NCBI GenBank assembly: GCA_016177405.1
Contig: JACOVG010000006.1
Coordinates: 10,064 to 74,063, forward strand
Direction: 5' to 3'
Source: Candidatus Omnitrophota bacterium
GTDB lineage: Bacteria; Omnitrophota; Gorgyraeia; 1-14-0-20-64-10
Length of the DNA stretch: 64,000 nucleotides
Shown here: positions 26,925-64,000 of the stretch, piece by piece
How positions within the stretch are numbered: position 1 is the first letter of the stretch
How the letters are laid out: every line of letters starts with the position of its first letter
Notes under the pieces: model-generated
Seen by the model: only the letters and a program-made list of their open reading frames with translations
Database searches by the model: none
Told to the model about the DNA's origin: nothing
Position numbers and translations under genes: made by a program

Positions 26925-27849
26925 CCACCTTGCTCCAGTTCAGCTTCTTTTCTTCCTCCTGGCCGCGATACCAATCCACATAGCGCCTCAATCCCTCCTG
27001 AAAGGGGGTTGTCGCTTTCCAGCCCAGGTCGTCCAGAGCCTGCCGGCTGCTCACCTTTTTTCCGGAGAAATCTCCGGGGCGCGCCGGCGTCGTCACGATC
27101 TGAACGTTGCCGATCAGATCGCTAACCGCCTGCGCGATTTCGCGGATGGAGATGCTGATCTCGCCGTCCAGGTTGTAGATTCGGTTGGCGGCAATGGTCT
27201 TGAGCGCCAGCACGACCCCCTCCGCCAGATCCTCCACGTAGACAAACTGCCGAAACTGCATCCCGTCCCCGGAAAGGGTTAGAGGCTCGCCCCGCAGCGC
27301 CTTGCCCACGAACAGGGGAATCACCGCCCCGCTGCGCGCCCGGGGACCGTAGGGGATTCCGAAGCGGAGAATCGTGTGCGCCAGACCGTAAAGGGCCGAA
27401 TAAGAGCGGCAGTAATATTCCGAGGCGAGCTTCGTGGCCGTGTAGAGATGGCGCGGAGGCGGGATGGGCGTGGCCTCGTTCACCTCGGCCTCGGAGCAGT
27501 CGCTGTAGACCCAGGTGGTGCTTCCGTAGATCACCCGGGGAATGCGGCCGCGCCGGGCCGCCTCCAGAACGCAGAGGGTCCCGCGGGTGTTGACCGTCTC
27601 CGCGTAGGAGGGGTCCTCAAAAACCTCCTTGACGTCCGCCACGGCGGCCAGGTGGACGACCGCGTGAACTCCGGTCAGGGCCAGGCGAAGGGCCTCCATG
27701 TCCAGGACGCTTCCGATGAAGTGCTCCACCTCCCGGTGGTAGGAGGAGCGCTGTTGGTCAAAGATCACCGCCTCCACGCCATGGGCCATCAGGCGGTCCA
27801 CCACATGGGAACCGATGAACCCCGCGCCGCCGGTCACCAGGACCCTCAT
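26905..27849 (-). CDS. NAD-dependent sugar epimerase/dehydratase (extended SDR)
   Basis: ATG at 27849 (MRVLVTGGAGFIGSHVV) with ATGA overlap; YTATK catalytic motif. Confidence 0.8.
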   Translation of the reverse strand: MRVLVTGGAGFIGSHVVDRLMAHGVEAVIFDQQRSSYHREVEHFIGSVLDMEALRLALTGVHAVVHLAAVADVKEVFEDPSYAETVNTRGTLCVLEAARRGRIPRVIYGSTTWVYSDCSEAEVNEATPIPPPRHLYTATKLASEYYCRSYSALYGLAHTILRFGIPYGPRARSGAVIPLFVGKALRGEPLTLSGDGMQFRQFVYVEDLAEGVVLALKTIAANRIYNLDGEISISIREIAQAVSDLIGNVQIVTTPARPGDFSGKKVSSRQALDDLGWKATTPFQEGLRRYVDWYRGQEEEKKLNWSKVDAALRP

Positions 27850-29048
27850 GGGCTCTTCCCCCGGGCGAAGGGCCATCGTTTTTCCATAACGAGCCGCATG
27901 GCGGTGGTGGCGTTCGGATCCTGCAGGCTCAATTGGCGAAAGTATCGGGCGGCCTCCCATCCCTGCCCCCGTTCAACCACCAACTCGAGCTGGTTGTAGA
28001 CGCGCCACCGCAGATCGATCTCCCCGTCTGGAAGCCTCTCGAGGAGCTCCACGAGAATTTGGGCGGCTTCCTGCGGGCGGCCCGCCTGAAGCTCGGCGTT
28101 CCCCGCCCACAACCGGCACCACTTGGCGAGGTACGAAGCCGGGCAACGCTGGATGACCCTGCGGTATTCCGCCAAGGCCTTCTCCCATCGCCCGTACAGG
28201 TGGTAGTTGCGAGCCGCGTAGTAAGTGCGCAAAGCCCAATGGAATTCCTTGAGGCTCATGACGTGAGGATCCTGCTGCTCCAAGTGAGCGTTCTCCGGCA
28301 CCTTGGGAAGCAGCGCGAGGTGAAGATCCTGGAAAGCGTTGGCCCACGTAGGACCCAGAAGCCGCCAAAGCCGGTGAATGGGATTGGCCAAAAAGGCCTT
28401 GGGGGCGCGCGACTTCACCATCGACAGGAAGAGACTGGGGGGCCTATGAGAATTAAAGATCTTATTGTAGGTCAGCAAGACGTGCTCCTGGGCTTCGGGA
28501 GCCAGGCTGGCAAAAACCGGCTGGGCCTGAAGGAGCTCGGGAGATCCAGAGACGTCTTCCCAGGTGGCCGGGGTTCCGTCCGGCAGCTTGAAGGTGATCC
28601 CAAAAAGAGGGTCGTAGTAAACCCATTTCCCACCGACGCGAACCACCAGGGCGGCGTGTATCGAGGGCCCATCCAAACCGGTGTAGAACTGGATGATCCG
28701 GCTTCGAACTCCCGTCAAGCTTAAGAAGGTCCCTACCGTCCAAACCTTCTGATCGCACCAGCCGATGCCTCGGACCAGACTGCTCCAGGGATCGGTGTCG
28801 ATGGTGTATCCCGGGCCCGGATACATCTGCTCCTGCACGAAAAAGAGAACACGATCCGTCAGAATGAGGGGATCGGATTCTCCGTGAGCCACCTGTTCCA
28901 AGACCACCGAGTAGCTTGCCTCGCGGTAGACGTACTCTCTTAAGCCCGGCAGCGCCAAGAAGGCCGCCAGAGCGAGAAGACCCGCCCCCGCCCCAACGGT
29001 GACCAGGCCTTTCCAACGAAAGCGCCTCAAGCCTGGGTTAAAGGCCAC
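27846..29048 (-). CDS. Membrane-anchored transglutaminase-like (Cys-protease fold) protein with C-terminal TPR-like repeats
   Basis: Probable GTG start 29048 (GGAGG SD 9 nt upstream) giving N-terminal TM VAFNPGLRRFRWKGLVTVGAGAGLLALAAFLAL; transglutaminase-like core GWCDQKVWTVGTFLSLTGV...HAALVV...YYDP; C-terminal helical repeats (YYAARNYHLYGRWEKALAEYRRVIQ...). Confidence 0.55.
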   Translation of the reverse strand: MAFNPGLRRFRWKGLVTVGAGAGLLALAAFLALPGLREYVYREASYSVVLEQVAHGESDPLILTDRVLFFVQEQMYPGPGYTIDTDPWSSLVRGIGWCDQKVWTVGTFLSLTGVRSRIIQFYTGLDGPSIHAALVVRVGGKWVYYDPLFGITFKLPDGTPATWEDVSGSPELLQAQPVFASLAPEAQEHVLLTYNKIFNSHRPPSLFLSMVKSRAPKAFLANPIHRLWRLLGPTWANAFQDLHLALLPKVPENAHLEQQDPHVMSLKEFHWALRTYYAARNYHLYGRWEKALAEYRRVIQRCPASYLAKWCRLWAGNAELQAGRPQEAAQILVELLERLPDGEIDLRWRVYNQLELVVERGQGWEAARYFRQLSLQDPNATTAMRLVMEKRWPFARGKSP

Positions 29049-30974: not shown

Positions 30975-32840
30975 CTAAAGCTCAAAGAGTGTCAGCCACA
31001 CCTCGAAGGTGAGCAGAAGCCACAGGGGGTTGGAGAAGTCCTGGCGGCCCGACCAATGGTCTTCCACCATCCGCCGAATCGGCCCAGGATCCAGATAGCG
31101 CCTCATGCGGGCGTTGGCGGCGCACAGGTGATCCGCGAGGGGCTGCCTTAAGCTCTTTCTGAACCAGGCACCCAGGGGAACCCCAAAACCCATCTTGCTC
31201 CTGCGGCGGATCAAGGGCGGCAGTAAATCGTCGAAGGTCTCCTTTAAAATCCACTTGGAGGTGAAGCCCCTCCACTTGAAACAACCCGGAAGCCGGAAGG
31301 CCCACTCGACGAGGGCGGTGTCCAGAAAAGGGGATCGGGTTTCCAAACCATGGGCCATGCTGCAGCGGTCCATCTTCACGTGAAGATCACAAGGCAGGTA
31401 CCGGCTAAAATTCAACCGCAGAACCCTGTCCAAAAGAGATCCCCCCCAAGGGTCTTCAAGGAAATTCCGATAATCCAAAAGGAGGTCGCTCCCCGGTAAA
31501 TCCTTCAGCAAAAACCGGTCTGGTTGAGGGAGATAGGTCGTCCAGGCGTAGTACCTTTGCGCCCTGGATCCACCGGCCGTCTCCAGAAAACGTTTGGCTC
31601 GAGAAAGGGGATTCCGCGAACGGCTCGGCACCGGCAGCAACCGGCTCAACCCGCCGGCCGCCCGGCGCGCCATCGGGGGCAGTCGGTCCGAGGCCAGCAA
31701 GGCCCCGAACCTCTGGTAGCCGGCGAAGAGCTCATCCCCGCCATCCCCGTTTAAGGCAACGGTCACGTGCGAACGGGTCAGCTTGGACAGGAGAAAGGTC
31801 GGAATGGCCGAGGAATCCCCGAAGGGCTGGTCGTGGTGCCGAACCAGATCGGTCAAAAGATCAAAGGAGTCGGGTTTCACCGTAAAGACGGTGTGGTCGG
31901 TCCTGAAGCGCTCCGCGGCGCAGGCGGCATAGGCCGTCTCGTTGAAAGAGGGGTCCCCCTCGAATCCGATCGAAAAGGTCTTGGGCTTGGAAGCCCCCAG
32001 CCTCGCCATCAGACCCACCACAATCGTGGAATCAATGCCTCCGCTTAGGAAAGCCCCCAGGGGGACATCCGCCACCAGCCGCTTGCGGACCGCTTCGGTT
32101 AAAAGATCCCGCAGCTGCTGCTTGGCTTCAGGCAAAGGAAGGGCCGATTCCCTCTCGGGAGGAAGCGCCCAATACCGTTCTTCGCGAATCACGCCGCCGC
32201 CAAGCCGAAAGACCAGGAGGTTACCCGGTTCCAACTGCCGGATCTCTTTAAAGCAGGTTTGTCCAGGCGGGGGATAGCCGAAGGCCAGCAGGTACGGGAG
32301 ATTCTGTTCCTCCAGCTGTTTGGGAACATGCGGGTGAGCGAAAAGGGCTTTGATCTCGGAGGCGAAGGCGAAGCAGTCGCCGTTGGTCCAATAGAAGAGG
32401 GGCTTTTTTCCGGTTCGGTCGCGCGCGAGGAGCAGCTCTTGCCTTAAACCGTCCCAGAGGGCCAGCGCGAACATCCCATCCAACCGGCGGATGGCCGATA
32501 CCCCCCAGGCCTGATAGGCCCGTAGGATGACCTCGGTGTCACAGCGGCTTCGAAAAGTGAAGCCCTGGGTCTCCAGCTCGGCCCGCAGTTCCTTAAAGTT
32601 GTAAACCTCGCCGTTGTAGCACAGCCACACCGGAGAATCTTCGCTGGCCATTGGCTGCCCCGCTTCGGGCGTTAAGTCGATCACCTTCAAACGACAGTGG
32701 CCCAATCCAACGAAGGGCTGCGCCAGGAGGGTTTTAGATTCGTCCGGCCCCCGGTGGCCCAGGAGCTTGATCATTCGCTGAAGCTCCTCTCTCCTGACCC
32801 CTTCTCCATTGGCGTGGACGACGCCAGCGAAACCGCACAC
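30975..32840 (-). CDS. Asparagine synthetase B-family glutamine-hydrolysing amidotransferase
   Basis: N-terminal MCGFAGV (Ntn Cys2 glutaminase) and PP-loop SGGIDS; 621 aa. Confidence 0.85.
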   Translation of the reverse strand: MCGFAGVVHANGEGVRREELQRMIKLLGHRGPDESKTLLAQPFVGLGHCRLKVIDLTPEAGQPMASEDSPVWLCYNGEVYNFKELRAELETQGFTFRSRCDTEVILRAYQAWGVSAIRRLDGMFALALWDGLRQELLLARDRTGKKPLFYWTNGDCFAFASEIKALFAHPHVPKQLEEQNLPYLLAFGYPPPGQTCFKEIRQLEPGNLLVFRLGGGVIREERYWALPPERESALPLPEAKQQLRDLLTEAVRKRLVADVPLGAFLSGGIDSTIVVGLMARLGASKPKTFSIGFEGDPSFNETAYAACAAERFRTDHTVFTVKPDSFDLLTDLVRHHDQPFGDSSAIPTFLLSKLTRSHVTVALNGDGGDELFAGYQRFGALLASDRLPPMARRAAGGLSRLLPVPSRSRNPLSRAKRFLETAGGSRAQRYYAWTTYLPQPDRFLLKDLPGSDLLLDYRNFLEDPWGGSLLDRVLRLNFSRYLPCDLHVKMDRCSMAHGLETRSPFLDTALVEWAFRLPGCFKWRGFTSKWILKETFDDLLPPLIRRRSKMGFGVPLGAWFRKSLRQPLADHLCAANARMRRYLDPGPIRRMVEDHWSGRQDFSNPLWLLLTFEVWLTLFEL

Positions 32841-45525: not shown

Positions 45526-46866
45526 TCACCATGGGTCAGGCACCTCGCCCAACAGAGAAAGCACCAGCGCGCCGGCCTCCGGCTCGGGTTCCCCTCTCCG
45601 GCCTGTCGGGAAAAACAGCTGGATCCGTTCCCCGAAGCGGATGGGCTGCTCTCGATAGAAATATCGGATTCCCTCCGATGAGGAGAGCGCTTCGCCGTTT
45701 AAGATAAGCGTCAACAGGGAGAGGTCCTGCCGAATGACGGAAACCCCCTCCACCTGCCCTTCGTACCATCTCCAGGGGCGCCCGAAGGACCGTTTCCCAG
45801 CCAGTTTCTCCAGGGCCCTGGGTGTCAGGCCATCGGCCGCAACCAGCACTTTCAAAAAGGCGGTTCTCCGGGTTCCGGTCTCCTCCGGCGGATGAGGCCA
45901 GGAGATCACCGTGGCGGTGATCGGAATAAGGGGCCAGCCCCATGAGGTACTGGGAATGCCGATGGAAATCACCGCGCCCGGCTGGATCAGCTGACCCCTG
46001 TAGCGGTAGCCTCGAATCCCCGCCCCGTTGGACTCCTCCTCCCCCGTCAGTTGAACTCGCAAAAGAGCCGTGTTTTCCCCCAGGGAAACGTCCGCCTCCA
46101 GGATCCTCCCCGAGTCCAGGGACGCCCTGGAAGGCAGGAACCTTCCGCACCGGAGCGCTCGAACCGCCTCGGGTGAAAGGCCGGTAGCCGCGCAGGTCAC
46201 CCACCGGCGCGCGGGGGTAAGTTTTGAGATCTCGAAGGCCTCTTTCAGGGTCGCCTCCCGGCCGTTGGTATTGGTCACCCTCACATCGTATTTCCCCGGC
46301 GGCAGATCCAGGGAGATGTGGTTCAGCACAATCTGCTCGGGCTGGAACCGCAGCGAAGACGACGGATCCAGCGCGAGGAGACGGTCCACCGCGACCGGCC
46401 CCAAGCGGATGGCCCCCAGGGAGTCGAAGCGGTTTCCTTCAATACTGAAGGTGATCACCTCTCCGGAGAGGAACTCGGTCGGATGGACCCTTTTAATCGT
46501 GGGCTGCCAGACGATTTCCAGGGAATCGTTCATCCAGGCCCTCTCCCCTTTCCCATTCTCCACAAAAACGCTGTAGCGGCCTTCGGGCCAGTCCTTAGGC
46601 AGTTCATAGTCCGCGCGGATGGGGTTCACGGAAGAGAGTCTCTTCAACGGATAGGGAACCAGGTAGCCGTGGGGTTCGAGGGCGAGCCCCGTCCCAAATA
46701 TATTGATCCTCTGGGCGGGCCCTTCCTTTGTCGCCAGCAGGCCGGGCTCCAAGCGGTAGAGCTTGAGGCGGTCATGGCCGGCCAGATTCAGCCCGTAGGA
46801 GCCCGTCGTCCAGAGGAAAGGCAGGAGGAAGAGACCGATGGCCCCATCGAGAAGATTCGGCCTCAT
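45526..46866 (-). CDS. Predicted exported protein (signal peptide), unknown function
   Basis: MRPNLLDGAIGLFLLPFLWTTGSYG signal-like N-terminus; 446 aa, no motif recognised. Confidence 0.5.
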   Translation of the reverse strand: MRPNLLDGAIGLFLLPFLWTTGSYGLNLAGHDRLKLYRLEPGLLATKEGPAQRINIFGTGLALEPHGYLVPYPLKRLSSVNPIRADYELPKDWPEGRYSVFVENGKGERAWMNDSLEIVWQPTIKRVHPTEFLSGEVITFSIEGNRFDSLGAIRLGPVAVDRLLALDPSSSLRFQPEQIVLNHISLDLPPGKYDVRVTNTNGREATLKEAFEISKLTPARRWVTCAATGLSPEAVRALRCGRFLPSRASLDSGRILEADVSLGENTALLRVQLTGEEESNGAGIRGYRYRGQLIQPGAVISIGIPSTSWGWPLIPITATVISWPHPPEETGTRRTAFLKVLVAADGLTPRALEKLAGKRSFGRPWRWYEGQVEGVSVIRQDLSLLTLILNGEALSSSEGIRYFYREQPIRFGERIQLFFPTGRRGEPEPEAGALVLSLLGEVPDPW

Positions 46867-47813
46867 GGGGCCGCCTGGAGGGCGGGCGCCCCCCGGAAGA
46901 ATGGAATCAGATTCTGGACCGCCCGCAGCTCCATCCGCGTCCTGGAGGCCCGGGTAAGCGAGGCGATGTGCGGGGTCAGCAGAACCTGCGGCATATGAGA
47001 CAGCGGGCCCACGTAAGGTTCGGTCTCAAAAACGTCCAGCGCCGCGGAGGAAAGACGGCCCGATTGGAGGGCCCCCACCAAGGCCGCCTCATCCACCAGA
47101 TGGCCCCGGGCCGTGTTGACCAGCCGGGCGCCCGGTTTCATCTGGGCAAACTCCCTGGAGCCCAAGACCGGCCCCTGTCTCGGGTCCCTTGCCGCGTGCA
47201 GGGAAACCAAATCGGACTGCGCCAGAAGGTCAGCCAGCGGCAGATTCGAGACCCCTTCCGGGCGCTGTCCTGCCGGGAGGACCGGGTCGCAGACCAGGAT
47301 CCTGGGCCCAAAGGGGCGCAGGAGTTTTTCCACCGCCTGGCCGACCCGGCCAAACCCGATCAAACCGATGCTCCACTCCGAGAGAAGATGCCCCACCTGT
47401 TTTTTCCAAAGACCCTGATCGAGATTCCTCAAGTGAAGGGGAAAATCCCGCGCCAGGGCCAGGATCATGCCGACCGTGATCTCCGCCACCGGGGCAGTCA
47501 CTTCCTCGGGCGTGGTGAGAACCGCGATCGCAAGTTCGGAAGCCGACGCCAGATCGATGGAATCGGTCCCTGTGCCGCATCGGCTGATCACCTTGAGATT
47601 CTTCAGGGACTGAAGAAGCCTTCTGTCGTAGGGCTCCACACCGGCCACGACCGCATCCGCCCGCGCGAGCAGGGAGGCCATCTCCTCTCCCTTCAAGCGC
47701 CTGCCCAGAGGGTTACGATGAATCTCAAAGCCGGCCTCCCGGAGAAGCTGAAGCGGCCGGTCGTCCGACTCGCCAAATTGCGCGAGCGCCACAAAAACCA
47801 CCGGCTGTTTCAC
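46863..47813 (-). CDS. D-isomer-specific 2-hydroxyacid dehydrogenase (PGDH-like)
   Basis: IGLIGFGRVGQAV NAD-binding motif; catalytic-domain/NAD-domain architecture, 316 aa. Confidence 0.8.
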   Translation of the reverse strand: MKQPVVFVALAQFGESDDRPLQLLREAGFEIHRNPLGRRLKGEEMASLLARADAVVAGVEPYDRRLLQSLKNLKVISRCGTGTDSIDLASASELAIAVLTTPEEVTAPVAEITVGMILALARDFPLHLRNLDQGLWKKQVGHLLSEWSIGLIGFGRVGQAVEKLLRPFGPRILVCDPVLPAGQRPEGVSNLPLADLLAQSDLVSLHAARDPRQGPVLGSREFAQMKPGARLVNTARGHLVDEAALVGALQSGRLSSAALDVFETEPYVGPLSHMPQVLLTPHIASLTRASRTRMELRAVQNLIPFFRGAPALQAAP

Positions 47814-48583
47814 CCCTTCAGCACCTGATGAAGAACCGCCCTCTGAAGGGGATCCTGGTCCAGGAGGTGTTCCACGGCTTTCACCTCGCCTGGGAGGTTG
47901 ATCCCCGCATACCCTCGAGGGAAGGCAATCCCCTGCAGGAGGACGTCGTGCTCCAGGATTCTGGATTGGTCCACCGACTCCAGGGTCTCAAGCGGCGTGC
48001 GGGCAAGTCCAGGATAGCGTTGAAGAAAATCCTGCCGGTAGCCCAAGATCCCCAGGATCTTACGCACCGGCTGCGCCCCGTTGCCGGCCGCCTTCAGGTG
48101 GGAGAAATTCCGGCCGCAAAAGAGTATCCTCCCGGAAACCGAAACGACGCACTTGACAACCGAGGGATCACCAAGCTCGCCAGGGGTTTCCAGAGAGGCC
48201 ACGGCGTTCCAAGCGGCCAGCTCGGGCCGCTGCCCGATGGCCTGAACCAGGCTCTCTAAATCACGAGGCAAAACCAGGATCTCATCCCCTTGAACATTCA
48301 CCACATGGGTGCAGTCCAGCTTCCCCGCCGCCTCCGCCACCCGGTCCGTTGCCGCCGGATGCCTGGAGGAAGTCATCAGCACCCGGCCGCCGGAACGCTC
48401 AACCACTTGGGCGATCTGGCGATCGCAGGTCGCCACCACCACTTCCTCGAAGCCCTTGCACAGCGCTGCCCTGCGGCGGACGTGCTCGATCATGGGGAGG
48501 CCCCGGATCTCCACCAGGGGCTTGCCCGGGAATCGACTGGAGGCCATCCGGGCCGGTATGATGCAGGCCACCCGCGTGCCCAT
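47810..48583 (-). CDS. KdsB-like cytidylyltransferase (CMP-3-deoxy-ulosonic acid synthetase family)
   Basis: ATG 48583 (TAATG overlap with upstream stop): MGTRVACIIPARMASSRFPGKPLVEIRGLPMIEHV matches KdsB IIPARYASTRLPGKPL; ORF-track 139-aa extension is read-through across upstream gene. Confidence 0.75.
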   Translation of the reverse strand: MGTRVACIIPARMASSRFPGKPLVEIRGLPMIEHVRRRAALCKGFEEVVVATCDRQIAQVVERSGGRVLMTSSRHPAATDRVAEAAGKLDCTHVVNVQGDEILVLPRDLESLVQAIGQRPELAAWNAVASLETPGELGDPSVVKCVVSVSGRILFCGRNFSHLKAAGNGAQPVRKILGILGYRQDFLQRYPGLARTPLETLESVDQSRILEHDVLLQGIAFPRGYAGINLPGEVKAVEHLLDQDPLQRAVLHQVLKG

Positions 48584-49344
48584 TACTGGGGCAGGGTCCC
48601 GCAATCCACGTTGAGGCACTGACCGGTGATCGCCGAAGCCTCCGGCGAGGCCAAGAAGTAGACCACCTGCGCCACTTCGTGAACCGTCGGCAGCCGGCCC
48701 AGGGCCGTTTGGGTGGCGGCGAAGGAGGCGAGATACCCGCTCACATCCTCGCCATGGGCGGGCGAAGCGGGCTCGGAAAGAGAGCTCAAGATCTGTTCCG
48801 TCTCCACATAGACCGGGCAGACCGCGTTGACGCGGATCCCTTGGGGCCCAAGCTCCTTGGCCAGGGCCTGGGTGATGCCGTTGACCGCGAACTTCGCGGC
48901 GCAATAAACGCTGTTGTTGGCCGAGCCGCGCTTGCCTGCCAGAGAGGAGACATTGATCAGGGCCCCTCCTTCCTTCAGGGCGGGAGCCGCCGCCGCGCAC
49001 CCCCAGAGGGTCCCCAAGATGCTGGTCTCCAGGATCTCCAAGGCAAACGGCTCGTCAATCTCCGTCAGGCCGCGCCACCTGGAAATCCCCGCGCAGTTGA
49101 CGAATACCTCCAGAGACCCGAATTGCTTAACAACCTTCCCAACAAAATCACGGGCTTGCTCCCGCTGTCGAACCTCCAGGGTAAAGTGAGCGATCGAAGA
49201 TTCCAAGCCGGGGTCCCGGGGCGACCGGGAACCCACGGCCACCCGGTAGCCTCGAGAGGCAAAAAGCTCGGCCACGGCCCGGCCGATCCCCCGGTTGCCG
49301 CCGGTGACCGCCACCACCGGCCGCGATTCTCCCGAAGGAGTCAT
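48583..49344 (-). CDS. SDR-family oxidoreductase
   Basis: VVAVTGGNRGIGRAV; NCAG; YCAAK. Confidence 0.8.
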   Translation of the reverse strand: MTPSGESRPVVAVTGGNRGIGRAVAELFASRGYRVAVGSRSPRDPGLESSIAHFTLEVRQREQARDFVGKVVKQFGSLEVFVNCAGISRWRGLTEIDEPFALEILETSILGTLWGCAAAAPALKEGGALINVSSLAGKRGSANNSVYCAAKFAVNGITQALAKELGPQGIRVNAVCPVYVETEQILSSLSEPASPAHGEDVSGYLASFAATQTALGRLPTVHEVAQVVYFLASPEASAITGQCLNVDCGTLPQ

Positions 49345-50093
49345 AGGGTCATGGCGGTGAACCCGCCGTCCACGGTCACCACGGAACCGGTCACGAAACT
49401 CGAGGCGTCAGAGGCCAGCCACAGGACCGCCCCCACCAATTCCTCCGGCTTGCCGAACCGCCCCGCGGGGGTGTGATTCAGAATCTTGGCCTTCCGGTCG
49501 TCGTCGATGAAGTTTTTCATGCTCCAGGCGGTCGGGAAAAAACCTGGTTTGAGGGCGTTCACCCGGACGTTGCGAGGGGCCCATTCCCGGGCCAGGTTTT
49601 GGGTTAGGTTCAGGACTCCCGACTTGGCGGCCGAGTAGACAAACGCCTTGGAAAGGGGCGGCCCGGCGGAAACCGAGGTGAAATTGATGATAGAACCTCT
49701 GCGCTGGCGGACCATCGTCTCCCCGAAGACCTGGCACCCCAACAGGGTGCCCAGGAAGTTCACCCCCATCACCCGGTCAACTTCCTGGCGCGAAATCTTC
49801 AAAAAGGGGGTGGGGGCGTTGGCCCCGGCGCCGTTGATCAGCAGGTCAATCCGCCCATGCGCCTTAAGGATCTTCTGCCTGCAGCGAATCCAGTCCTCTT
49901 TTCGGGTCACATCGCAGCGGAGATACCCCACCGAGCCCGGCAGCCCCGCTTGACGCGCCTTCTTCTCACCGGCTAAATCCAGCACGGTCACGCGAACACC
50001 CGCCTCATCCAACGCTTGGGAGATGACAGCGCACAGATGTCCCGCGCCGCCCGACACGGCGGCCACCCTGCCGGAGAGATCAGCGTTGTTCAA
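49341..50093 (-). CDS. SDR-family oxidoreductase
   Basis: RVAAVSGGAGHLCAV; INGAG; YSAAK; start ambiguous (TTG 50093 or TTG 50159). Confidence 0.75.
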   Translation of the reverse strand: MNNADLSGRVAAVSGGAGHLCAVISQALDEAGVRVTVLDLAGEKKARQAGLPGSVGYLRCDVTRKEDWIRCRQKILKAHGRIDLLINGAGANAPTPFLKISRQEVDRVMGVNFLGTLLGCQVFGETMVRQRRGSIINFTSVSAGPPLSKAFVYSAAKSGVLNLTQNLAREWAPRNVRVNALKPGFFPTAWSMKNFIDDDRKAKILNHTPAGRFGKPEELVGAVLWLASDASSFVTGSVVTVDGGFTAMTL

Positions 50094-51192
50094 GGGGCGC
50101 GGCCTCCAACGGACCCGCGGCAGGGATCGGCTGCGGGAGCCGTTCGCCGATGTATTCAAAATAAGGGTTGTTGGCCACCTTCTCGTTGAAGAAGAAGGCC
50201 CGCCGGGGATAGAGGTAAGGGGCCGAGAAGATGGGGCACACGGCGAAATGGAGCCGGCGGCGGGTGGGAATCCAGAGGGGATAGTCCGCCACGGTCAGGT
50301 CGGTGTCGTACGTGGGCCGCGATTGAATCCTGTTCACCAGAAAGAGGAAACGGGCATTCTGGACAGGGGCCGAGTCGGTGTAGAAGCTGAACCATTCCGG
50401 GGACATCTCCCCGAAGGAAGCGCAGTTGAAGACCAGGTCCACCGCCTCTGGCGCCAACCCGGCGAATCGCGGACAGGGCAACAGAACAAAGTCATACTGC
50501 CGGATCCAGCTGCGGGTCAGCACAGGCTGCCGGAGGACCTCGCGGATCCCGGCCACGCGGGCCTTTGGCAGCCACCTCTTCAGGAAGTAGTGGGCCAGGA
50601 GCAGCTGCTCGGAGAAATCGGCCAGGACCTGGTGGGTTCCCCTATACTCCTGGCTCACCAGACCGGAAAAGATACCGTAGCTTGAGCCGATGTCCAGAAC
50701 CACGTCGCCGGCCGCCAGGCGCTGCCCGAGCTTCTCCTTAAGGACCGCCTGGCACCAGATGTGCTTGAGCCACCGGTAGGTCACCACGAAGCCCTTGCGC
50801 CGGTAAACGAAGGGCTCCCCCACCGGCGTGCAGGGATACTTTCGAAGCAGGTCCTCCGCGGCGGCGCTGCCTTGGATCACCTGAAGACACTCCTCCAGCG
50901 TCTGGCGGACCCCGCGGCGGCCTCCCCCCAGGAAATTCCTCGGGTCGGGACGGTTGATGTGAAAGGTGGGGTCATCCGGAATGAAGATCCGAAGGCGGCG
51001 AAATCGCCGGAAGGTCTCGGGTTCGATGGAACCGTCTGGCCGCAGGAGCCGTTTGGGCTCCTCCGTGATCAGCGACCGCCATTTTGGGATCAGCGCCTGG
51101 GCAGGCAATCCCAGTAGTCCGGCTCCGCGGGCCGCCTGGGCATCGGCCTGCACCTGGGCCAGCACCTCCTCCTCCCGAAGGCGATCAGGCAT
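50080..51192 (-). CDS. Non-canonical methyltransferase-like protein (putative sugar O-methyltransferase family; degenerate Rossmann motif)
   Basis: ATG 51192 (MPDRLREEEV); VVLDIGSSYGIFSG degenerate motif I; architecture paralogous to 52579..53568. Confidence 0.5.
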   Translation of the reverse strand: MPDRLREEEVLAQVQADAQAARGAGLLGLPAQALIPKWRSLITEEPKRLLRPDGSIEPETFRRFRRLRIFIPDDPTFHINRPDPRNFLGGGRRGVRQTLEECLQVIQGSAAAEDLLRKYPCTPVGEPFVYRRKGFVVTYRWLKHIWCQAVLKEKLGQRLAAGDVVLDIGSSYGIFSGLVSQEYRGTHQVLADFSEQLLLAHYFLKRWLPKARVAGIREVLRQPVLTRSWIRQYDFVLLPCPRFAGLAPEAVDLVFNCASFGEMSPEWFSFYTDSAPVQNARFLFLVNRIQSRPTYDTDLTVADYPLWIPTRRRLHFAVCPIFSAPYLYPRRAFFFNEKVANNPYFEYIGERLPQPIPAAGPLEAAPLEQR

Positions 51193-51928
51193 TCTTAACG
51201 CAGAGAAACCCGCAGAAGTTGTACCACTGGAAGAAGGTCTCGGCGATTTGAAAGCCGCATTTCCGGAAAAGCTCCAGGTTCTCGTCCAACTTGAAGGGAA
51301 CAAGAACGTTCTCCAAGGCCTCCCGCTTGCGTGCGATCTCCTCGTGGGTGTAGCCATTCCTCTTCTTGAAGGCGTAGTAGCGTTCGATGAAGAACTGGTT
51401 CATCTCGCCCTGGCGCGTGAGGATCTTCTCGGTCACGATGAAGGCGCCGCCGTTGACCAGCGACTCATAAATGTGCCTCACGAGGCGATCCCGATGCAGG
51501 GGGCGCACAAACTGCAGCGTCCAGCACAGCGTCACAACGCTCGCCTTGTCCAGACACAGCTCCGGATCGCTCACGTCCCGGCAGTGGATCTCCACCGTCT
51601 CCTGAAGCTTGCTTTCCGCCACGCGGGCCTTCGCCCGCTGGACCATGGGCTCCGAGGAATCGTAGCCCACCAGCCGGGCGCTCTGACCCTGCAGGGCGCT
51701 GGCAACGTTGACGAGGGTGGTCCCGGTCGAGCAGCCCAGGTCGTAAACGCGCGTGTTGGGGACCCAGAAATGCCTGGCCAGCTCCTGGATCAGGTGCTGC
51801 TGTTCCCGGTAGAAGGGAACGCTGCGCTCGAGCATATCGTCGAATACGGCGGCCACCTCGCTGTTGAACTCAAAGTCGGTCGCCCGAGAGGCGGTGCCTT
51901 GAAAGATCTGGTCCCTGCTGTCAGCCAT
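51185..51928 (-). CDS. CmoA-family protein (carboxy-S-adenosyl-L-methionine synthase homolog)
   Basis: ATG 51928 with AGGAGGA SD; full-length collinear similarity to E. coli CmoA: ...AAVFDDMLERSVPFYREQQHLIQELARHFWVPNTRVYDLGCSTG... / ...KKRNGYTHEEIARKREALENVLVPF...FQWYNFCGFLCVKNA vs CmoA ...[21 protein letters not shown]...FQCFNFGSLVALKA. Confidence 0.75.
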   Translation of the reverse strand: MADSRDQIFQGTASRATDFEFNSEVAAVFDDMLERSVPFYREQQHLIQELARHFWVPNTRVYDLGCSTGTTLVNVASALQGQSARLVGYDSSEPMVQRAKARVAESKLQETVEIHCRDVSDPELCLDKASVVTLCWTLQFVRPLHRDRLVRHIYESLVNGGAFIVTEKILTRQGEMNQFFIERYYAFKKRNGYTHEEIARKREALENVLVPFKLDENLELFRKCGFQIAETFFQWYNFCGFLCVKNA

Positions 51929-52577
51929 GGGGGTCCTCCTGCTTGCTAAGCAAAAACATCGCGTCCACGTTGTCACCCTCTTTGTACGGGTACCGTTCCT
52001 CCTTCAGGAGTTTGAGATCCGGAAAGGATTCCCGGTAAAGACGGGCAAAATCGCCTTTCCAAAGGAGATCCTTGCGCCCCTGGTACAAAACCGTTTCGTA
52101 CCGGTCCGAGAAGTACTCATAGCCCCAGATCCACCCGCGGCTGCAGCGCCGGATCTCCAAGAGCGCGCGCCGCAGGTCCGAGGGAGACACGTGGATCAGG
52201 ACACCGGAGGTAAAAACCAGATCAAAGGAGCCTGCCTGGAAGGGGATCTCCAGGGCCGAACCCTGAACGATCCGAAGGCCCCGGGATCTGGTCTTGGCCT
52301 TTCGCGCGGCATCCCCCTGCAGCTCAATACCGCAGAGGTTCGTAAAGCCCATCCTCTGAAGGCACAAGAGCTGAATTCCAATGTTGCAGCCGACCTCCAG
52401 GATCCGCGCCGCCCGGTCCAGGCCTCCGATGAACCGCTCGTTGAGTTCGGTCCTGGTCCATCCCAGACGGCTCCGGAAACGCTCCTCTAACTCTTCTACC
52501 GAGATCTCGTTGCGGTCGGTATAGTCCCTCCCGAACTCCCCCGCCCACTGGGCCATTTGAGCGGTCTGGGAAGCCAT
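51921..52577 (-). CDS. Class I SAM-dependent methyltransferase (pseudaminic-acid-cluster-associated methylase-like)
   Basis: ATG 52577 (MASQTAQMAQWAGEFGRDYTDRN); ILEVGCNIGIQL motif I; VLIHVSPSD. Confidence 0.65.
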   Translation of the reverse strand: MASQTAQMAQWAGEFGRDYTDRNEISVEELEERFRSRLGWTRTELNERFIGGLDRAARILEVGCNIGIQLLCLQRMGFTNLCGIELQGDAARKAKTRSRGLRIVQGSALEIPFQAGSFDLVFTSGVLIHVSPSDLRRALLEIRRCSRGWIWGYEYFSDRYETVLYQGRKDLLWKGDFARLYRESFPDLKLLKEERYPYKEGDNVDAMFLLSKQEDPHG

Positions 52578-52578
52578 C

Positions 52579-53568
52579 TTAGGCCTCACCGGCCAGGTGA
52601 ACCAGCCGGTGCCAGGTGGGACCGTCAAAATGGTTCACCCACGGGATCCTCATTCCCAGCCACCGGGGGCCTGGGGCAAGGGTTTGGGCCTCGAGGTAGT
52701 GGACAAAATAGGGGCAGGGACCCTCTAAGAAGATCTGGTCCCTGGTCGACCAGGGGTAATCGTGAAAGCTGGCCACCTCGCCGCCCGGCAGCTTCTTGTA
52801 GAGACGGTTAGAGCAGTAAAAACGGGAACTGGGGCCGCTTCGTTTTCTTAAGAATGAGAAATAGGCCTGGATGTTGGCCGGGGTCATCTCCTGCATGCTG
52901 ACCAGGTTGATGGCGCAGTCGATCTTCTCTTCGATCCGCTCGATCTCCCGGCCAAGGACAAAGGTGACAGCCGCCGGAGACCCGGTCGCGCCTTCGGAGG
53001 GCAGCACCCGCATGGAAATCGGCTCGCGGGAAAAAGCCTTTTGATAAGTGCACAGCTGGAACATCAGCGTCTTGGGCAAGTCAATGGCGAAGATACGGGT
53101 CGATTCCAAACCGAACCGCCGAAGGATGAGCGTCCCCAGGAATCCATCACCGTCTCCGATCATGGCGAAGGTCTTGGGTGCAAGCCCCTGCGCGCGGAAA
53201 TGCTCTTCCAGAATGGCCACGACCACGGCAGACGACCACTCATGGCGGGTCAGGGAAAGCCCCAGGTCGCGAGCGAGGGCCTTCGCATGCGCCCAGGCCG
53301 AAGGGAAGGCTCGAAGGGTGCGGGTGTACGGCAGGTACGAGAGCCGCTCCAAGCCGTAGAGCCCCCGGCCCAGCCAACCCGTCTTACTGTGGGAGGTGAA
53401 CCCTGCCCCGTGCAGAAACAGGCGATCGCCCCGGCGCTCGACCGTCATCTGCCTGGCATACCGCTTCCAGAGGGAGCTGGCCTCCTCCGGAACAGAGTCC
53501 TGCTCAATCACCGTAAGCAGGGACTCGGCAGCGGGACTTAGGGGATGCTCTCCAACCATGCTGTTCAT
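52579..53568 (-). CDS. Non-canonical methyltransferase-like protein (putative sugar O-methyltransferase family), paralog of 50080..51192
   Basis: FAMIGDGDGFLGTL degenerate motif I; similar length/architecture to 50080..51192; ATG 53568 or 53559. Confidence 0.5.
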   Translation of the reverse strand: MNSMVGEHPLSPAAESLLTVIEQDSVPEEASSLWKRYARQMTVERRGDRLFLHGAGFTSHSKTGWLGRGLYGLERLSYLPYTRTLRAFPSAWAHAKALARDLGLSLTRHEWSSAVVVAILEEHFRAQGLAPKTFAMIGDGDGFLGTLILRRFGLESTRIFAIDLPKTLMFQLCTYQKAFSREPISMRVLPSEGATGSPAAVTFVLGREIERIEEKIDCAINLVSMQEMTPANIQAYFSFLRKRSGPSSRFYCSNRLYKKLPGGEVASFHDYPWSTRDQIFLEGPCPYFVHYLEAQTLAPGPRWLGMRIPWVNHFDGPTWHRLVHLAGEA

Positions 53569-53610: not shown

Positions 53611-55263
53611 TCAAGACTGCCCTCCGCCCATTGGCACCCGATACCGGATCTTCCTCTGGGCCCCGGGTAGGAGCTCCCAGTCGGCCTCAAGATCAGCTTG
53701 GGCATTCAGTTCGGACAGGTCGAAGTAACGGGCGCTCCCCATGAAATGGAGATACCCTTGCCGGCAGTGCCTCACGAGAGCAGGCTCCCGGGAGAGATTC
53801 TCCAGGTGGTCATCGATCACAAGCTCCGAGGCGGTCCAGTGAATGGTCCGTTCCATTCGAAAGGGAAGTTTTGAGCTCCTGAAGATGAGGCGCTTGGCCA
53901 TCAGCCGCTTCAAGGCGAGGTTGGCCGGCATGAACCAGCCGAAGGCAAGCTGGTAAACCCTAAGCAGCAGGAAGAAAAGGGGCCTCTGGCGCAGGCGGGT
54001 GGGTCGCTGGGCGCAGGCACGGAAGGTCATACGGTCGCCCTGCCGTTGGGTCCGGCCATCCATGACGCCGGTAAAACCCGCGCTGCGGCCCAGCCGGATA
54101 AAATAGCCAGCACTGGAAAAGAGGACCCTGTTCGCCTCCTCGTCCTCCACTTGCACCATCCCTCCGTTCAGGCGCCCCCGAGCTGTTCCCCTCCCCCTCT
54201 GAAGGCAGAAGAGAGTGGAGGCGGGGCAGAAGAAATCGGAAGCATGGGCGTGCCGCGCCGGCCCCGGCGATTCTTGGGTTTGCCCCCCCGCCGCAAGAAA
54301 TGCCCGGACATAGTCCGAAAGAAGAGGAACGAGGTTCTGGAGATCTGTCGTCCGGTTGGTGATGCCCAGATCCCTCTGGATGACGGCGCGAACCGCCGCG
54401 CGCAGATCCGGCCCCGCTTCAAACCTCGCGGCCAGCTCGAAACCGGACGGAAACAGCAGCTTGGTCCCCCGGCAGCCGTAGCAACCGCCGTTGCCGCTGA
54501 CCGGGCTTAGGAAATGGCTTGAAAACTCCAAGGCCCTCGCGAGAGCCTTCCGCAGCCGCGGGTCCTCCAAGCGCGCCGAGCACGCCGCCAGATGCGCCAC
54601 ACCTAGGGTTTGATAACCAGGATCCGCGCCCAGGTACTCAAAGAAAGCGCCGGAGGCGAGCTGCCGTTGGAGAACCTTCTCGATCAGGAACAGCGCCCTC
54701 TGCCGGTAGCCGGACTCCCCCGTCAGGGCGTTCAGATCCAGAAGCCCCGCCGCCATCCCCAGTTGATGGTTTGAATTGAACCCGTGCCGCTCCTCGTGGC
54801 GCAGCAGGAATCGCCCTGCCCTGCCGCACATCTTTCGAAATTGCTCTTGGGTTTTGGCGCCAAGATTCCCCTTCAGCAGTTCGGCGGCCAGATGCGCGTC
54901 GTGCACCAGCAGGCCCGCCGTCACCACAGAGTTGTCGTTGGGGTAGCACTGGGTGAAGGCGCCGTTGGTGTACTGTTCTAAGAGACAAAACGAAAACGCC
55001 TGCTCGATCCATCGCAGGAGGCTTCCGTTGTGGAAATAAGGGTTGCGGGGCGCCTGGTATTGGTAAAGAAAGCTTAGCGGCAGGATCAGCCTCTGAAGAT
55101 CCATGTTGGAGAAATCGCTGGCGCCCCAGGCCCAATGCAGGCGGTCAAAACTCCCGAAGGCGCTGGAAAACGGCTCCCGGTCCAGGTGGGAAAGCACCTG
55201 GGGCGCCGCCTCCAGCAGGCGGTCGGCGTAAAGATTCGAGGGAGAGCTGTCCGTGGGCGGCAT
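53611..55263 (-). CDS. Hypothetical protein (550 aa), possibly alpha/alpha-toroid (heparinase II/III-like) polysaccharide-modifying enzyme
   Basis: Long ORF without signal peptide; helical-repeat character; assignment speculative. Confidence 0.45.
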   Translation of the reverse strand: MPPTDSSPSNLYADRLLEAAPQVLSHLDREPFSSAFGSFDRLHWAWGASDFSNMDLQRLILPLSFLYQYQAPRNPYFHNGSLLRWIEQAFSFCLLEQYTNGAFTQCYPNDNSVVTAGLLVHDAHLAAELLKGNLGAKTQEQFRKMCGRAGRFLLRHEERHGFNSNHQLGMAAGLLDLNALTGESGYRQRALFLIEKVLQRQLASGAFFEYLGADPGYQTLGVAHLAACSARLEDPRLRKALARALEFSSHFLSPVSGNGGCYGCRGTKLLFPSGFELAARFEAGPDLRAAVRAVIQRDLGITNRTTDLQNLVPLLSDYVRAFLAAGGQTQESPGPARHAHASDFFCPASTLFCLQRGRGTARGRLNGGMVQVEDEEANRVLFSSAGYFIRLGRSAGFTGVMDGRTQRQGDRMTFRACAQRPTRLRQRPLFFLLLRVYQLAFGWFMPANLALKRLMAKRLIFRSSKLPFRMERTIHWTASELVIDDHLENLSREPALVRHCRQGYLHFMGSARYFDLSELNAQADLEADWELLPGAQRKIRYRVPMGGGQS

Positions 55264-55270
55264 GCTCTCG

Positions 55271-57595
55271 CTAACGCCTCACCGCAAACAGCAGGAGGAA
55301 AAAGCAGGCTCCCGCTCCGATGGCAAGGAGCGTGAGCCAAGCCGACTCCTTCGCTAAGAAGAGGACCCGGGAGCTTCCCTCCGGAACCTGGAGGACCCAT
55401 CGCAAGCCGGAGGGTTCCAAGGCAAGCGAGGTCTCCTTGCCGCTTACGTCCACCGCGCGAGCCTCCATGTTCCTTAAGTCCAGATGAACCGAGAGCTTCC
55501 CGCCCTTGGAGGCCGGGAGCGTTACCGCCGCGCCGTACGGCGTCTCCCCCAAAGCCAGCGGAGTCGCCAAATCATCCAGAAGATAGGCGACCGGCTTGGC
55601 GGCGGCGTTCTCATACACCGCCGCGTAGGGTCCCTCAAAGACCCGCGTGAACTTTTGAGGATGAAGGCGCTGAAGGTCAAAGCGGCTTATCCAATATCGA
55701 ACGCCGTACTCCTCAAAAATTTCCTCCTCCGGACGGACAATCACACTGCGGTAGTTCAGAATCTGGGCTTCCGGGGTCCCCGGACGCCGCCAAAAGGGGT
55801 TGCCCTGTCTTCTTAATTCGGCATGAACCGGACCGTAAAAGTGAAGAGGCGGCAAGACCCACGCCAGCCCCTGACGCAGGCACGGTTCATTCTTTCGGAG
55901 GTGATAGACCACCCCCTCTTCCCTTTGGGAGGCCAGCGCCCAGAACCCCTGCCAGTTTCCACGCGCCAGCTCCATCTCCCCTGACACCACCACCCCTACC
56001 CGGTACCGATAACCCGGGATTTTCTCCTGGAGGAACCGGAGTTCCGGCGGGGGGGACAGCATCGCCGTGAGCTCCGGCGGCCTCCGGTACCAGCCTGCCC
56101 CATATCCGTAACCAAAGGCCGGGGCGGCGATGGACAGGCTCAAAGCGGCCAGCAGCGCCGCGCGACCCATCGTCCGCGGCGTTCCTGATCTTCTTAAAGC
56201 CAGAAAAGAGAAATAACCCCCCAAGCCAAGAACAATCCCCGCGGCCAAAACCCATGTCCCGTTAAACAAGCTGTGGAAAGCCGTGCCGGATCCGAGCAAT
56301 CCTCGTTGAGAAGCCACGCCGAAGAGCCGATCCTCTCCCAGGAACCACAGCGCGCCTCCCGCGGTCACCGCGAGAACCAGGATCACCCGGTAGAGTCTGT
56401 GCAAAAAACGAATCGTCCTCGTCCGCGTGTCGGCAAACCATGCCAGGTTCACCCCTGCCGCCACCACCCCGCCGCTTAAAAGCGGGAAGACGAAGAGACG
56501 GGAAAATCCCGCGTCCCGAATGAGCACCGAGGGAATCTCGAGGGAACTGACCGCCATCATCAAAAGGCAGTAGCCCGCGGCCCCCGCGGCCAAGATGCGG
56601 CCGGATCCGGCTTGGGACTGCCAAAGCGCCAAGAGGCTGGGCACAAGCAGAAAGGATCCGAAAAGCCAGCTGTTGGGCGGCTGGAAATGATCCATCCAAC
56701 CCAATTTTTCAAAGAGGACCGGAACCGATTCCGGGACCGGAAACCCAAGCCCCAGGAATTGCGGGAGGGAAGACGGGGCAAACCCCCACCCCAGGGGCGT
56801 GAGCGCCTCCCGGGTGGAGAATCCCCAACCCACCGTAAAGAGCATGGGTGCCGCGATCGGCAGCCAGCCTAAGGCGGTCAGGGGCCCCACACGCGTCAGG
56901 AACGGTCGAACGGTTGACGCCCAACGCTCTCTTTGAAGAAAGGCCATCCCAAGGATGCCTCCCAGCAGGTAAGCCTGCGTGGGAATCAGGGCCTGGGACT
57001 GGGTCACGTACGGCTGAAGGGCATTGGCAAGAATGCACCCAACGAGGTGCCGGCGCTTCGCGGTTCTGACCCAAAGCCCGTATTCTCCAAGAGAAACCCC
57101 CAGGAGAACGGACCCCGCTGTCCAGTAGACCTTGGCGGTCCACTCGAGCCAGGAGGTCGCGAAGAAGGCGGTCATCGCCCCCGCGAGCGCGGCGGTCCTC
57201 GAGACCCTCCCCAGTCTGCGGCTGTAGAAGTAGACGACCCCGAAAAGGGCGGCGTGCACCCCAGCGATCAGGATCCCCCAGCCGGTCGGGCTGGCTCCCA
57301 GAGCGATGGAGATGAGCCGGATGAGGTGGAGGGGGTGGTATTTGATGTCGTTACCCCACAGCCTGGTGTCGGTCGCCAAATCAAAGTAATGAAAGAATCG
57401 TCCGCCGGGCCTGGCGTCCCCCATCGAAAAGAGCATGTGGGTTACGGGGTCGCCCTCCGTGCTGGTGACGAAACTTCGGGCCGACAGGAGGATGGGGCCA
57501 TAGAAGACCAGCAGGCACAACGCCAGCACCGCAAGAGGGAGAATGGCCACCGAGGCGCCCTGAGACGCTTGAGGCGAATGGGACGGCTTTGCCAT
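55271..57595 (-). CDS. Large polytopic membrane protein (774 aa), YfhO/GT-C-like putative lipid-carrier-dependent glycosyltransferase
   Basis: ~12+ hydrophobic segments in first ~450 aa followed by ~300-aa soluble C-terminal domain; architecture and genomic pairing with a DPM1-like GT2 (59847..60539) resemble YfhO/CsbB systems. Confidence 0.5.
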   Translation of the reverse strand: MAKPSHSPQASQGASVAILPLAVLALCLLVFYGPILLSARSFVTSTEGDPVTHMLFSMGDARPGGRFFHYFDLATDTRLWGNDIKYHPLHLIRLISIALGASPTGWGILIAGVHAALFGVVYFYSRRLGRVSRTAALAGAMTAFFATSWLEWTAKVYWTAGSVLLGVSLGEYGLWVRTAKRRHLVGCILANALQPYVTQSQALIPTQAYLLGGILGMAFLQRERWASTVRPFLTRVGPLTALGWLPIAAPMLFTVGWGFSTREALTPLGWGFAPSSLPQFLGLGFPVPESVPVLFEKLGWMDHFQPPNSWLFGSFLLVPSLLALWQSQAGSGRILAAGAAGYCLLMMAVSSLEIPSVLIRDAGFSRLFVFPLLSGGVVAAGVNLAWFADTRTRTIRFLHRLYRVILVLAVTAGGALWFLGEDRLFGVASQRGLLGSGTAFHSLFNGTWVLAAGIVLGLGGYFSFLALRRSGTPRTMGRAALLAALSLSIAAPAFGYGYGAGWYRRPPELTAMLSPPPELRFLQEKIPGYRYRVGVVVSGEMELARGNWQGFWALASQREEGVVYHLRKNEPCLRQGLAWVLPPLHFYGPVHAELRRQGNPFWRRPGTPEAQILNYRSVIVRPEEEIFEEYGVRYWISRFDLQRLHPQKFTRVFEGPYAAVYENAAAKPVAYLLDDLATPLALGETPYGAAVTLPASKGGKLSVHLDLRNMEARAVDVSGKETSLALEPSGLRWVLQVPEGSSRVLFLAKESAWLTLLAIGAGACFFLLLFAVRR

Positions 57596-63891: not shown

Positions 63892-64000
63892 CTCTTCTGG
63901 CGGCAGGCAGAGGCGCTTGGGGCGCGAACAGCCGGATCAGGGCACGCATCCTTTCGCCCCATTTCCAAAGCAGGAAAACGTCGGAAGCCAGCACCAAGAA
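63884..64000 (-). CDS. 3' fragment of an upstream CDS extending beyond window (unknown product)
   Basis: Minus-strand open frame ...FLVLASDVFLLWKWGERMRALIRLFAPQAPLPAARRGA* ending with TGA at 63884-63886, overlapping HAD start; no identification possible. Confidence 0.25.
   Translation of the reverse strand, partial: FLVLASDVFLLWKWGERMRALIRLFAPQAPLPAARRGA

Follow-up and report, generated by a model that had tools for sequence, protein, structure and literature searches.

A Carboxy-SAM Synthase Paired with a NanM-Type Methyltransferase in Bacterial Glycan Loci: A Candidate Route to Carboxymethylated Surface Sugars

Introduction

What is a gene for making carboxy-S-adenosylmethionine (carboxy-SAM) doing in a glycan operon? 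The question is raised by a 64,000-nucleotide (nt) stretch of a Candidatus Omnitrophota bacterium genome (assembly GCA_016177405.1, contig JACOVG010000006.1, positions 10,064 to 74,063), here called the window, in which a homologue of cmoA, the carboxy-SAM synthase gene, lies between methyltransferase-like genes. Carboxy-SAM, which Escherichia coli makes natively, was long regarded as the cofactor for one tRNA modification only, and each user recognized later, whether for an amino acid derived from a RiPP (a peptide made on the ribosome and altered after translation), a microcin, or phage DNA, has been notable. A first-pass annotation of the window suggested that carboxy-SAM serves here to carboxymethylate a sugar. 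We present strong genomic evidence that CmoA and its downstream neighbor, a protein that we call NanM1, are a functional pair whose placement in a glycan operon is no accident.

The known users of carboxy-SAM are CmoB (acting on tRNA), TglF (a peptide thiol), MccB-CTD (peptidyl-cytidylate), and CmoX (DNA cytosine); each is encoded beside a CmoA homologue, and together they represent more than one transferase fold (PMC10491745, PMC12783734). In a survey of mainly open-access literature, which leaves a report in a subscription journal possible, no report came to light that connects CmoA or carboxy-SAM with glycans, polysaccharide, or nonulosonic acids.

Results

Identity of the Window CmoA

The first-pass annotation recognized the cmoA product by eye and proposed a search with the TIGR00740 profile as a check, and the search agrees with it: the protein scores 230.8 bits against a curated equivalog cut-off of 193.3, with residues 5–245 aligned to profile positions 1–239, and the runner-up unrelated family reaches 50 bits. 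The stricter enterobacterial model NF011995 is missed (160 vs 285). The alignment to E. coli CmoA runs from end to end (33% identity over 241 amino acids [aa], E=7e-46, tblastn), the CmoA structures 4GEK (E. coli) and 1IM8 (H. influenzae) in the Protein Data Bank (PDB) are matched at E=9.4e-44 and E=8e-43, and an identical protein in NCBI, from a Candidatus Omnitrophica metagenome-assembled genome (MAG), is already named CmoA.

In E. coli CmoA the cofactor is contacted by Y39, D62, G64, S66, D89, N90, D117, N132, and F137; an acidic residue at position 164 is conserved; Arg199, which is specific to the CmoA family and absent from ordinary methyltransferases, forms a salt bridge with the carboxylate of the carboxymethyl group; and a lid closes over the cofactor and obstructs the site where substrate usually binds (Byrne et al. 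2013, PMC3663124). The window protein keeps the equivalents of Y39, D62, G64, S66, D89, D117, F137, E164, and R199 and departs at two contact sites, with Ser for N90 and Cys for N132. Cys132 is the majority residue among canonical relatives of the window CmoA (64 of 78), and Arg199, within the segment ...IARKREALENV..., is conserved in 77 of these 78. A suggestion that Arg199 and Tyr200 be examined as paired CmoA residues holds for its first half; residue 200 of E. coli CmoA is Ser, and Tyr200 is a carboxy-SAM ligand of CmoB (PMC10491745). This gene is a true, canonical CmoA.

Association of CmoA with NanM1

One genome per GTDB species was scanned with a profile of NanM1 homologues, which yielded 38 loci (designated by L-numbers); their neighboring genes were called by tblastn and clustering of open reading frames. 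CmoA was counted as linked when a CmoA-family gene stood immediately beside NanM1 or within 3.5 kb of it on the same strand. Such a gene is linked to NanM1 in 29 of the 38 loci, and both gene orders occur, CmoA-NanM1 and NanM1-CmoA. At least 12 phyla are represented, and the groups are Omnitrophota, Planctomycetota, Dehalococcoidia, Nitrospirota, Myxococcota, Peribacteria, delta-type proteobacteria, Bdellovibrionota, Alpha-, Beta-, and Gammaproteobacteria, Campylobacterota, Actinomycetota, and Bacteroidota. The cultured strains Sediminibacterium roseum SYL130, Polynucleobacter bastaniensis, Hoeflea sp. CAU 1731, and Flavimaribacter sediminis WL0058 have the pair, and metagenome contigs supplied two more linked examples (L046 and L128). 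A single-copy gene would be expected to fall within a few kilobases of NanM1 by chance in far below 1% of genomes. An E. coli-type cmoB was found in none of 118 related loci. NCBI names the two genes separately, as "CmoA" and "putative sugar O-methyltransferase," and their relationship is not annotated. At one locus from a Peribacteria MAG (L016, 2612–3335), the cmoA beside NanM1 is split into two tblastn segments, which points to a frameshift, to a pseudogene, or to faulty assembly.

The genomic evidence that CmoA and NanM1 function as a pair is thereby also evidence for the use of carboxy-SAM in glycan modification. The proposal is supported as far as these two genes are concerned, with 29 of 38 genomes in at least 12 phyla and a window subclade that is linked throughout; its extension to the genes upstream of cmoA is not.

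In a neighbor-joining tree the window CmoA falls in a small subclade with the proteins of L007, L046, L009, L011, and L014, all NanM1-linked. A second set of canonical, NanM1-linked CmoA proteins lies elsewhere in the tree (L012, L013, L015, L017, and L024), and a deep CmoA-like clade, which we call group 2, is likewise linked throughout (L010, L020, L026–L028, L030–L035, L039, L040, and L044). In the window CmoA and 11 other NanM1 partners, Arg199 and Glu164 are both retained and the score lies above the equivalog cut-off.

Near 80 close relatives of the window CmoA collected from metagenomes, no cmoB was found. In 34 of these 80 loci (among L045–L124), CmoA adjoins a methyltransferase-like gene of about 258 aa, here called X, mostly placed immediately downstream (for example, L118, 6741–7514, plus strand). 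X reaches the cut-off of no NCBIfam family and resembles neither CmoB nor NanM1; it is a candidate for a further carboxy-SAM user or for an analogue of CmoB outside the Proteobacteria.

Features of NanM1

NanM1 scores 79.5 bits on TIGR04371 (cut-off 44), with only residues 170–342 aligned, to profile positions 104–273. It has the marks of the class I (Rossmann) fold, namely a seven-stranded Rossmann-like core, motif I, and an acidic residue ending strand 2. Motif I is unusual (D-I-G-S-S-Y-G) and is followed by D192 after strand 2 and, after strand 4, by N256-x-x-S-x-G-E-M. The N-terminal domain, some 90 residues long, is specific to the family and contains invariant W38, F64-R65, D73, and R93, to which R140, W141, and H144 are added. 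The membership of NanM1 in the TIGR04371 "NanM" family is apparent in its score, its fold, and its sialic-acid-like or ulosonic-acid neighborhood. It differs in that its match is confined to the C-terminal two thirds of the profile, and its subfamily is set apart by a near-obligate CmoA neighbor, the GSSYG motif I, and the conserved N-terminal domain. The core family comprises about 100 clusters at 50% identity.

Residues R140, Y172, E262, N287, and D303 are nearly invariant whichever type of CmoA is the partner. Among the six adequately flanked NanM1 loci without CmoA, L021 (9995–11056) alone departs there, with R140M and Y172C; this single case hints that R140 and Y172 are candidate ligands of the cofactor carboxylate. 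NanM1 does not show homology to CmoB with that enzyme's carboxylate ligands (K91, Y200, and R315). A sequence search for a solved relative gave only marginal matches to motif I, and a fold search returned only generic methyltransferases.

The Flanking Methyltransferases

Two further methyltransferase genes, which encode NanM2 and a Pse_Me-ase-type enzyme, lie upstream of cmoA. The proteins on either side of cmoA had been described as two methyltransferase-like paralogs with degenerate motifs I. The motifs DIGSSYG (NanM1) and IGDGDG (NanM2) are present, although NanM2 keeps a conventional G-D-G-x-G, and the family profiles are homologous (hhalign probability 97.9%, E=5.5e-13, 246 columns); the two proteins themselves are barely similar (BLASTP E=0.019). 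On this showing they belong to distant paralogous families and are not close paralogs.

Nor are they equivalent as partners of CmoA. A NanM2 match occurs near CmoA-NanM1 in only one (L011) of the 38 loci, and tblastn found no Pse_Me-ase beside CmoA-NanM1 elsewhere among them. Members of the NanM2 family do occur in HpcH-HAD-SDR-SDR-KdsB-like cassettes that lack any CmoA (L125 and L127; SDR, short-chain dehydrogenase/reductase). Because NanM2 relatives occupy the same cassette without CmoA and do not accompany CmoA-NanM1 elsewhere, the link with CmoA is a property of the NanM1 subfamily alone. NanM2 is probably an ordinary SAM-dependent sugar methyltransferase. We have dropped the idea that both flanking proteins use carboxy-SAM, since neither NanM2 nor the Pse-type methylase is part of the conserved unit.

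Organization of the Locus

The methyltransferase block belongs to a single minus-strand operon of the glycan type that extends over more than 60 kb. Public gene calls on near-identical contigs, together with our reading of the junctions, give the order NanM2, Pse_Me-ase, CmoA, NanM1, SDR, SDR, KdsB-like, D-2-hydroxyacid dehydrogenase (Table 1). The stop codon of the Pse_Me-ase gene and the ATG of cmoA overlap by 8 nt (ATGGCTGA), in keeping with the coupling of these two genes reported at first pass; cmoA and NanM1 are joined by a second 8-nt overlap (ATGCCTGA), and 1 nt separates the end of NanM2 from the Pse_Me-ase ATG. The observation that no cmoB adjoins cmoA extends to the whole 64-kb window, where the search gave a single match of 37.7 bits, to a generic methyltransferase.

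Table 1. Genes of the methyltransferase block and the adjoining ulosonic-acid cassette, in minus-strand order
Feature	Coordinates	Strand	Description	Basis
NanM2	52579..53559	-	326 aa; motif IGDGDG; distant NanM1 relative	TIGR04371 33.2 bits vs cut-off 44
Pse_Me-ase-type SAM methyltransferase	51921..52577	-	218 aa	TIGR03587 162.6 bits vs cut-off 112.05; Methyltransf_11/25
cmoA	51185..51928	-	247 aa, starts MADSRDQ; carboxy-S-adenosyl-L-methionine (Cx-SAM) synthase	TIGR00740; PDB 4GEK; kept residues
NanM1	50080..51192	-	370 aa; proposed Cx-SAM-dependent sugar carboxymethyltransferase	class I methyltransferase fold; TIGR04371 "putative sugar O-methyltransferase" family
SDR oxidoreductase, first of two	49341..50093	-	ulosonic-acid cassette	adh_short + adh_short_C2
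SDR oxidoreductase, second	48583..49344	-	ulosonic-acid cassette	adh_short_C2, 172 bits
KdsB-like CMP-ulosonate cytidylyltransferase	47810..48583	-	CTP_transf_3	NF003952 201.8 bits vs cut-off 193; PF02348 123.5 bits
D-2-hydroxyacid dehydrogenase	46863..47813	-	ulosonic-acid cassette	2-Hacid_dh + 2-Hacid_dh_C

Directly upstream of the block, on the same strand, lie genes for proteins of 550 aa (53611–55263) and 774 aa (55271–57595), neither with a Pfam or NCBIfam match; L009 encodes a weak relative of the former (29% identity), and the sequence of the latter contains many hydrophobic stretches.

Glycan Context

The position inside a glycan operon, also noted at first pass, is confirmed by the company the block keeps. 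Besides the KdsB-like gene, the window has Rml-type genes for deoxythymidine diphosphate sugars and genes for a sugar C-methyltransferase, several GT2/GT1 glycosyltransferases, a PMT_2-type membrane transferase, NeuB, a formyltransferase, a deacetylase of the PIG-L type, two aminotransferases of the DegT type, a uridine diphosphate-N-acetylglucosamine 2-epimerase, B12-radical-SAM enzymes, an ATP-binding cassette (ABC) exporter, and an AsnB-like amidotransferase (30975–32840). A second acid-sugar module (22922–27960, minus strand), with a NeuB-family synthase, a GT2, a PIG-L deacetylase, a formyltransferase, a DegT aminotransferase, and a 4,6-dehydratase-like epimerase, suggests that an N-formylated nonulosonic or amino sugar is made as well.

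Two neighborhoods recur around NanM1. One consists of an HpcH/HpaI aldolase, a HAD phosphatase, a SIS_2 isomerase, a TAL/FSA aldolase, a GFO oxidoreductase, Methyltransf_23, two SDRs, a KdsB-like cytidylyltransferase, and a 2-hydroxyacid dehydrogenase; it is conserved in the window (46863–50093 and 63932–64000, the latter being the C-terminal end of the aldolase gene) and in L007, L017, L020, L021, L023, L037, L042, L044, L125, and L127. The other is a nonulosonic-acid module of NeuB plus CTP_transf_3 and an aminotransferase. From their gene content, both are predicted to make 2-keto-3-deoxy acid sugars activated with cytidine monophosphate (CMP), and the first looks like a route to a CMP-activated ulosonic acid via a class II pyruvate aldolase, not a KdsA/NeuB synthase. 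The KdsB-like family is present in 13 of 39 NanM1 loci and the D-2-hydroxyacid dehydrogenase in 10 of 39. Orthologues of the first window SDR occur in L007, L011, L017, L042, and L044 (45–73% identity), and those of the second in L007, L008, L017, L042, and L044 (45–69%). At L007, whose CmoA is 78% identical to that of the window, the pair occupies precisely the junction of the cytidylyltransferase and 2-hydroxyacid dehydrogenase genes. In L014 and L032, AsnB-like amidotransferases are immediate neighbors of NanM1.

Among loci of the NeuB type, six encode a protein of about 635 aa that has no Pfam match (L010, 7316–9223; L011, 7501–9234; L012, 6521–8422; L013, 8104–9987; L016, 625–2580; L024, 4677–6635). 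It adjoins CmoA in five of the six, with an ABC-transporter gene and a gap intervening in L024, and it may be a third component at such loci. In L128 the genes at the equivalent position are listed in precomputed Pfam results as PF27878 (PFTS_polysacc).

A context that differs from the ulosonic-acid cassettes is found in Flavimaribacter sediminis (L034, 3209–9750), where three PP-binding plus thioesterase proteins, a fourth with thioesterase only, and a GT25 lipopolysaccharide glycosyltransferase precede the NanM1/CmoA-like pair; similar PP-binding/thioesterase surroundings occur in L026, L027, and L031, from marine and rhizobial alphaproteobacteria.

Discussion

We favor, as rather probable, the view that CmoA and NanM1 form a two-enzyme cascade that carboxymethylates an ulosonic acid sugar of a surface glycan. 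The Pse_Me-ase gene, cmoA, and NanM1, which are translationally coupled, lie within a cassette whose sugar is a 2-keto-3-deoxy (ulosonic) acid activated with CMP. CmoA would convert SAM and prephenate to carboxy-SAM; NanM1 would take carboxy-SAM in place of SAM and alkylate the sugar with its carboxymethyl group, a hydroxyl being the most likely site, and the product would be an O-carboxymethyl (glycolate-ether) ulosonic acid. The acceptor could be an ulosonic-acid residue that is free, CMP-activated, or already transferred, and the modified sugar would then be built into the surface glycan. NanM2 and the Pse-type methylase would act as ordinary SAM methyltransferases on the same sugar or glycan. 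More speculatively, the Pse-type enzyme could methyl-esterify the new carboxylate, by analogy with CmoM, and the AsnB-like enzymes could amidate it, as CmoY does in phage DNA. The linkage that we describe is genomic; from it we infer that NanM1 binds carboxy-SAM, that a sugar is the acceptor, which atom is modified, and what the other two methylases do.

On sequence grounds, the arrangement appears to follow the known logic of carboxy-SAM systems, and both its transferase family and its substrate class would be new to them. With the CmoA/CmoB system for cmo5U34 in E. coli tRNA it shares the CmoA family, the contact residues, including Arg199, and a two-gene plan in which the synthase gene overlaps the next one, whose product is a Rossmann-fold transferase with an additional N-terminal domain. 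TglE/TglF (3-thiaglutamate) and MccS/MccB-CTD (microcin C-like) provide precedents for the recruitment of a CmoA homologue to a specialized cluster, where it feeds a cluster-specific transferase, and MccB-CTD illustrates that this transferase need not resemble CmoB (PMC10491745). Their acceptors are a peptide thiol and cytidylate, whereas here the cluster is one for a surface glycan and its transferase is a member of the NanM/TIGR04371 superfamily. The phage CmoA/CmoX/CmoY system, which makes 5-carboxymethylcytosine, likewise has no CmoB and pairs CmoA with an enzyme whose methyltransferase family ordinarily works with SAM (Nat Commun 2025, PMC12783734). Its carboxymethyl group is a handle for amidation (PMC12783734), and AsnB-like genes are present here in L014, L032, and the window operon. 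CmoX, however, is a C5-MTase homologue that acts on C5 of DNA cytosine and is unrelated to NanM1.

Several observations weigh against a carboxy-SAM-dependent sugar carboxymethyltransferase. Six of the 38 NanM1 loci are adequately flanked and have no CmoA (in three others the contig is too short to tell), and an orphan NanM1 homologue from a metagenome (L129) stands in a non-glycan context. Viewed from the other gene, only 1 of the 80 close metagenomic relatives of the window CmoA (45–64% identity) is linked to NanM1, and we reject a general NanM1 linkage of these relatives. O-Carboxymethyl sugars were not found in the mainly open-access literature that we covered, and we know of no sequence signature that separates carboxy-SAM users from SAM users. 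The group 2 proteins, which make up about half of the NanM1 partners, pose the main caveat for generalizing. They score 139–169 bits on TIGR00740, below 193.3, with CmoA still by far their best family, and in the hidden Markov model alignment they have Q, A, S, or T at position 199. Since these partners lack Arg199 and fall under the cut-off, the partnership may rest on something other than carboxy-SAM. In group 2 a Lys takes the place of Glu203, one helical turn on from position 199, and most members have Arg or Lys at position 200; Lys203 may represent a relocated carboxylate-binding charge or may signal a different chemistry.

Might the window cmoA simply be the housekeeping gene for tRNA cmo5U34, landed in a glycan operon by chance, with cmoB elsewhere and NanM1 an ordinary SAM-dependent sugar O-methyltransferase? 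Its fully canonical sequence would suit such a gene, as would the abundance of close relatives that are almost never NanM1-linked; outside the Proteobacteria cmoA and cmoB need not adjoin, and the search for cmoB in this genome covered the window. As a sole explanation, a drifted tRNA gene, which the first-pass annotation had itself named as the alternative, is nonetheless refuted by pairing that crosses phyla and by a CmoA subclade in which every member is linked. The retention of the pair in both orders in 29 of 38 genomes, the small chance of such placement in any one of them, and the 8-nt overlaps at both cmoA junctions make the housekeeping account quite unlikely, and the window CmoA may have a dual role, in tRNA and glycan. 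Doubtful as well is the idea that the partners are two plain methyltransferases, with a CmoA-family protein that has lost, or never possessed, carboxylase activity acting, like NanM1, as a SAM methyltransferase on the same sugar. The loss of Arg199 in group 2, the annotation of NanM as an O-methyltransferase, and the many methyltransferases of the operon speak for it, yet it leaves unexplained why NanM1 keeps constant company with one narrow subfamily out of dozens. The window CmoA and its 11 like partners retain Arg199 and Glu164, and exceed the equivalog cut-off, and the lid of CmoA obstructs the usual substrate site (Byrne 2013). To our knowledge, no CmoA-family member transfers methyl.

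A further possibility accepts carboxymethylation by NanM1 and moves it to a nonsugar acceptor associated with the envelope pathway (a lipid, a protein, or an intermediate bound to a carrier protein). At L034 the pair lies among four PP-binding/thioesterase proteins and GT25, with no ulosonic-acid genes seen, and the orphan L129 homologue points the same way. Most adequately flanked loci, however, have KdsB-like genes or NeuB plus CTP_transf_3 genes, the NanM1/NanM2 superfamily is embedded in sugar-nucleotide cassettes, and the L007 pair is inserted within such a cassette; we judge a nonsugar acceptor to be improbable.

Whether the sugar carboxymethylation cascade applies to the family at large seems to us about evenly balanced: the NanM1 subfamily would then be a new class of carboxy-SAM-dependent sugar carboxymethyltransferases, and its pairs with CmoA would place O-carboxymethyl groups on CMP-activated 3-deoxy-D-manno-octulosonic acid (Kdo)-like or nonulosonic acids in the surface glycans of at least 12 phyla. 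Carboxy-SAM-selective O-alkyltransferases have so far been built by enzyme engineers through mutagenesis (PMC7496830); NanM1, if the cascade operates as proposed, would be a natural one. Glycans would become a fourth class of carboxy-SAM substrate after tRNA, peptides and peptidyl-nucleotides, and phage DNA, and the CmoA-X pair (34/80 loci) would imply that further users of the cofactor await discovery. For the bacteria themselves, the cascade would mean a new group on surface sugars, an ether-linked acetate with extra negative charge, and it would give a function to a conserved, unstudied family of methyltransferase-like proteins.

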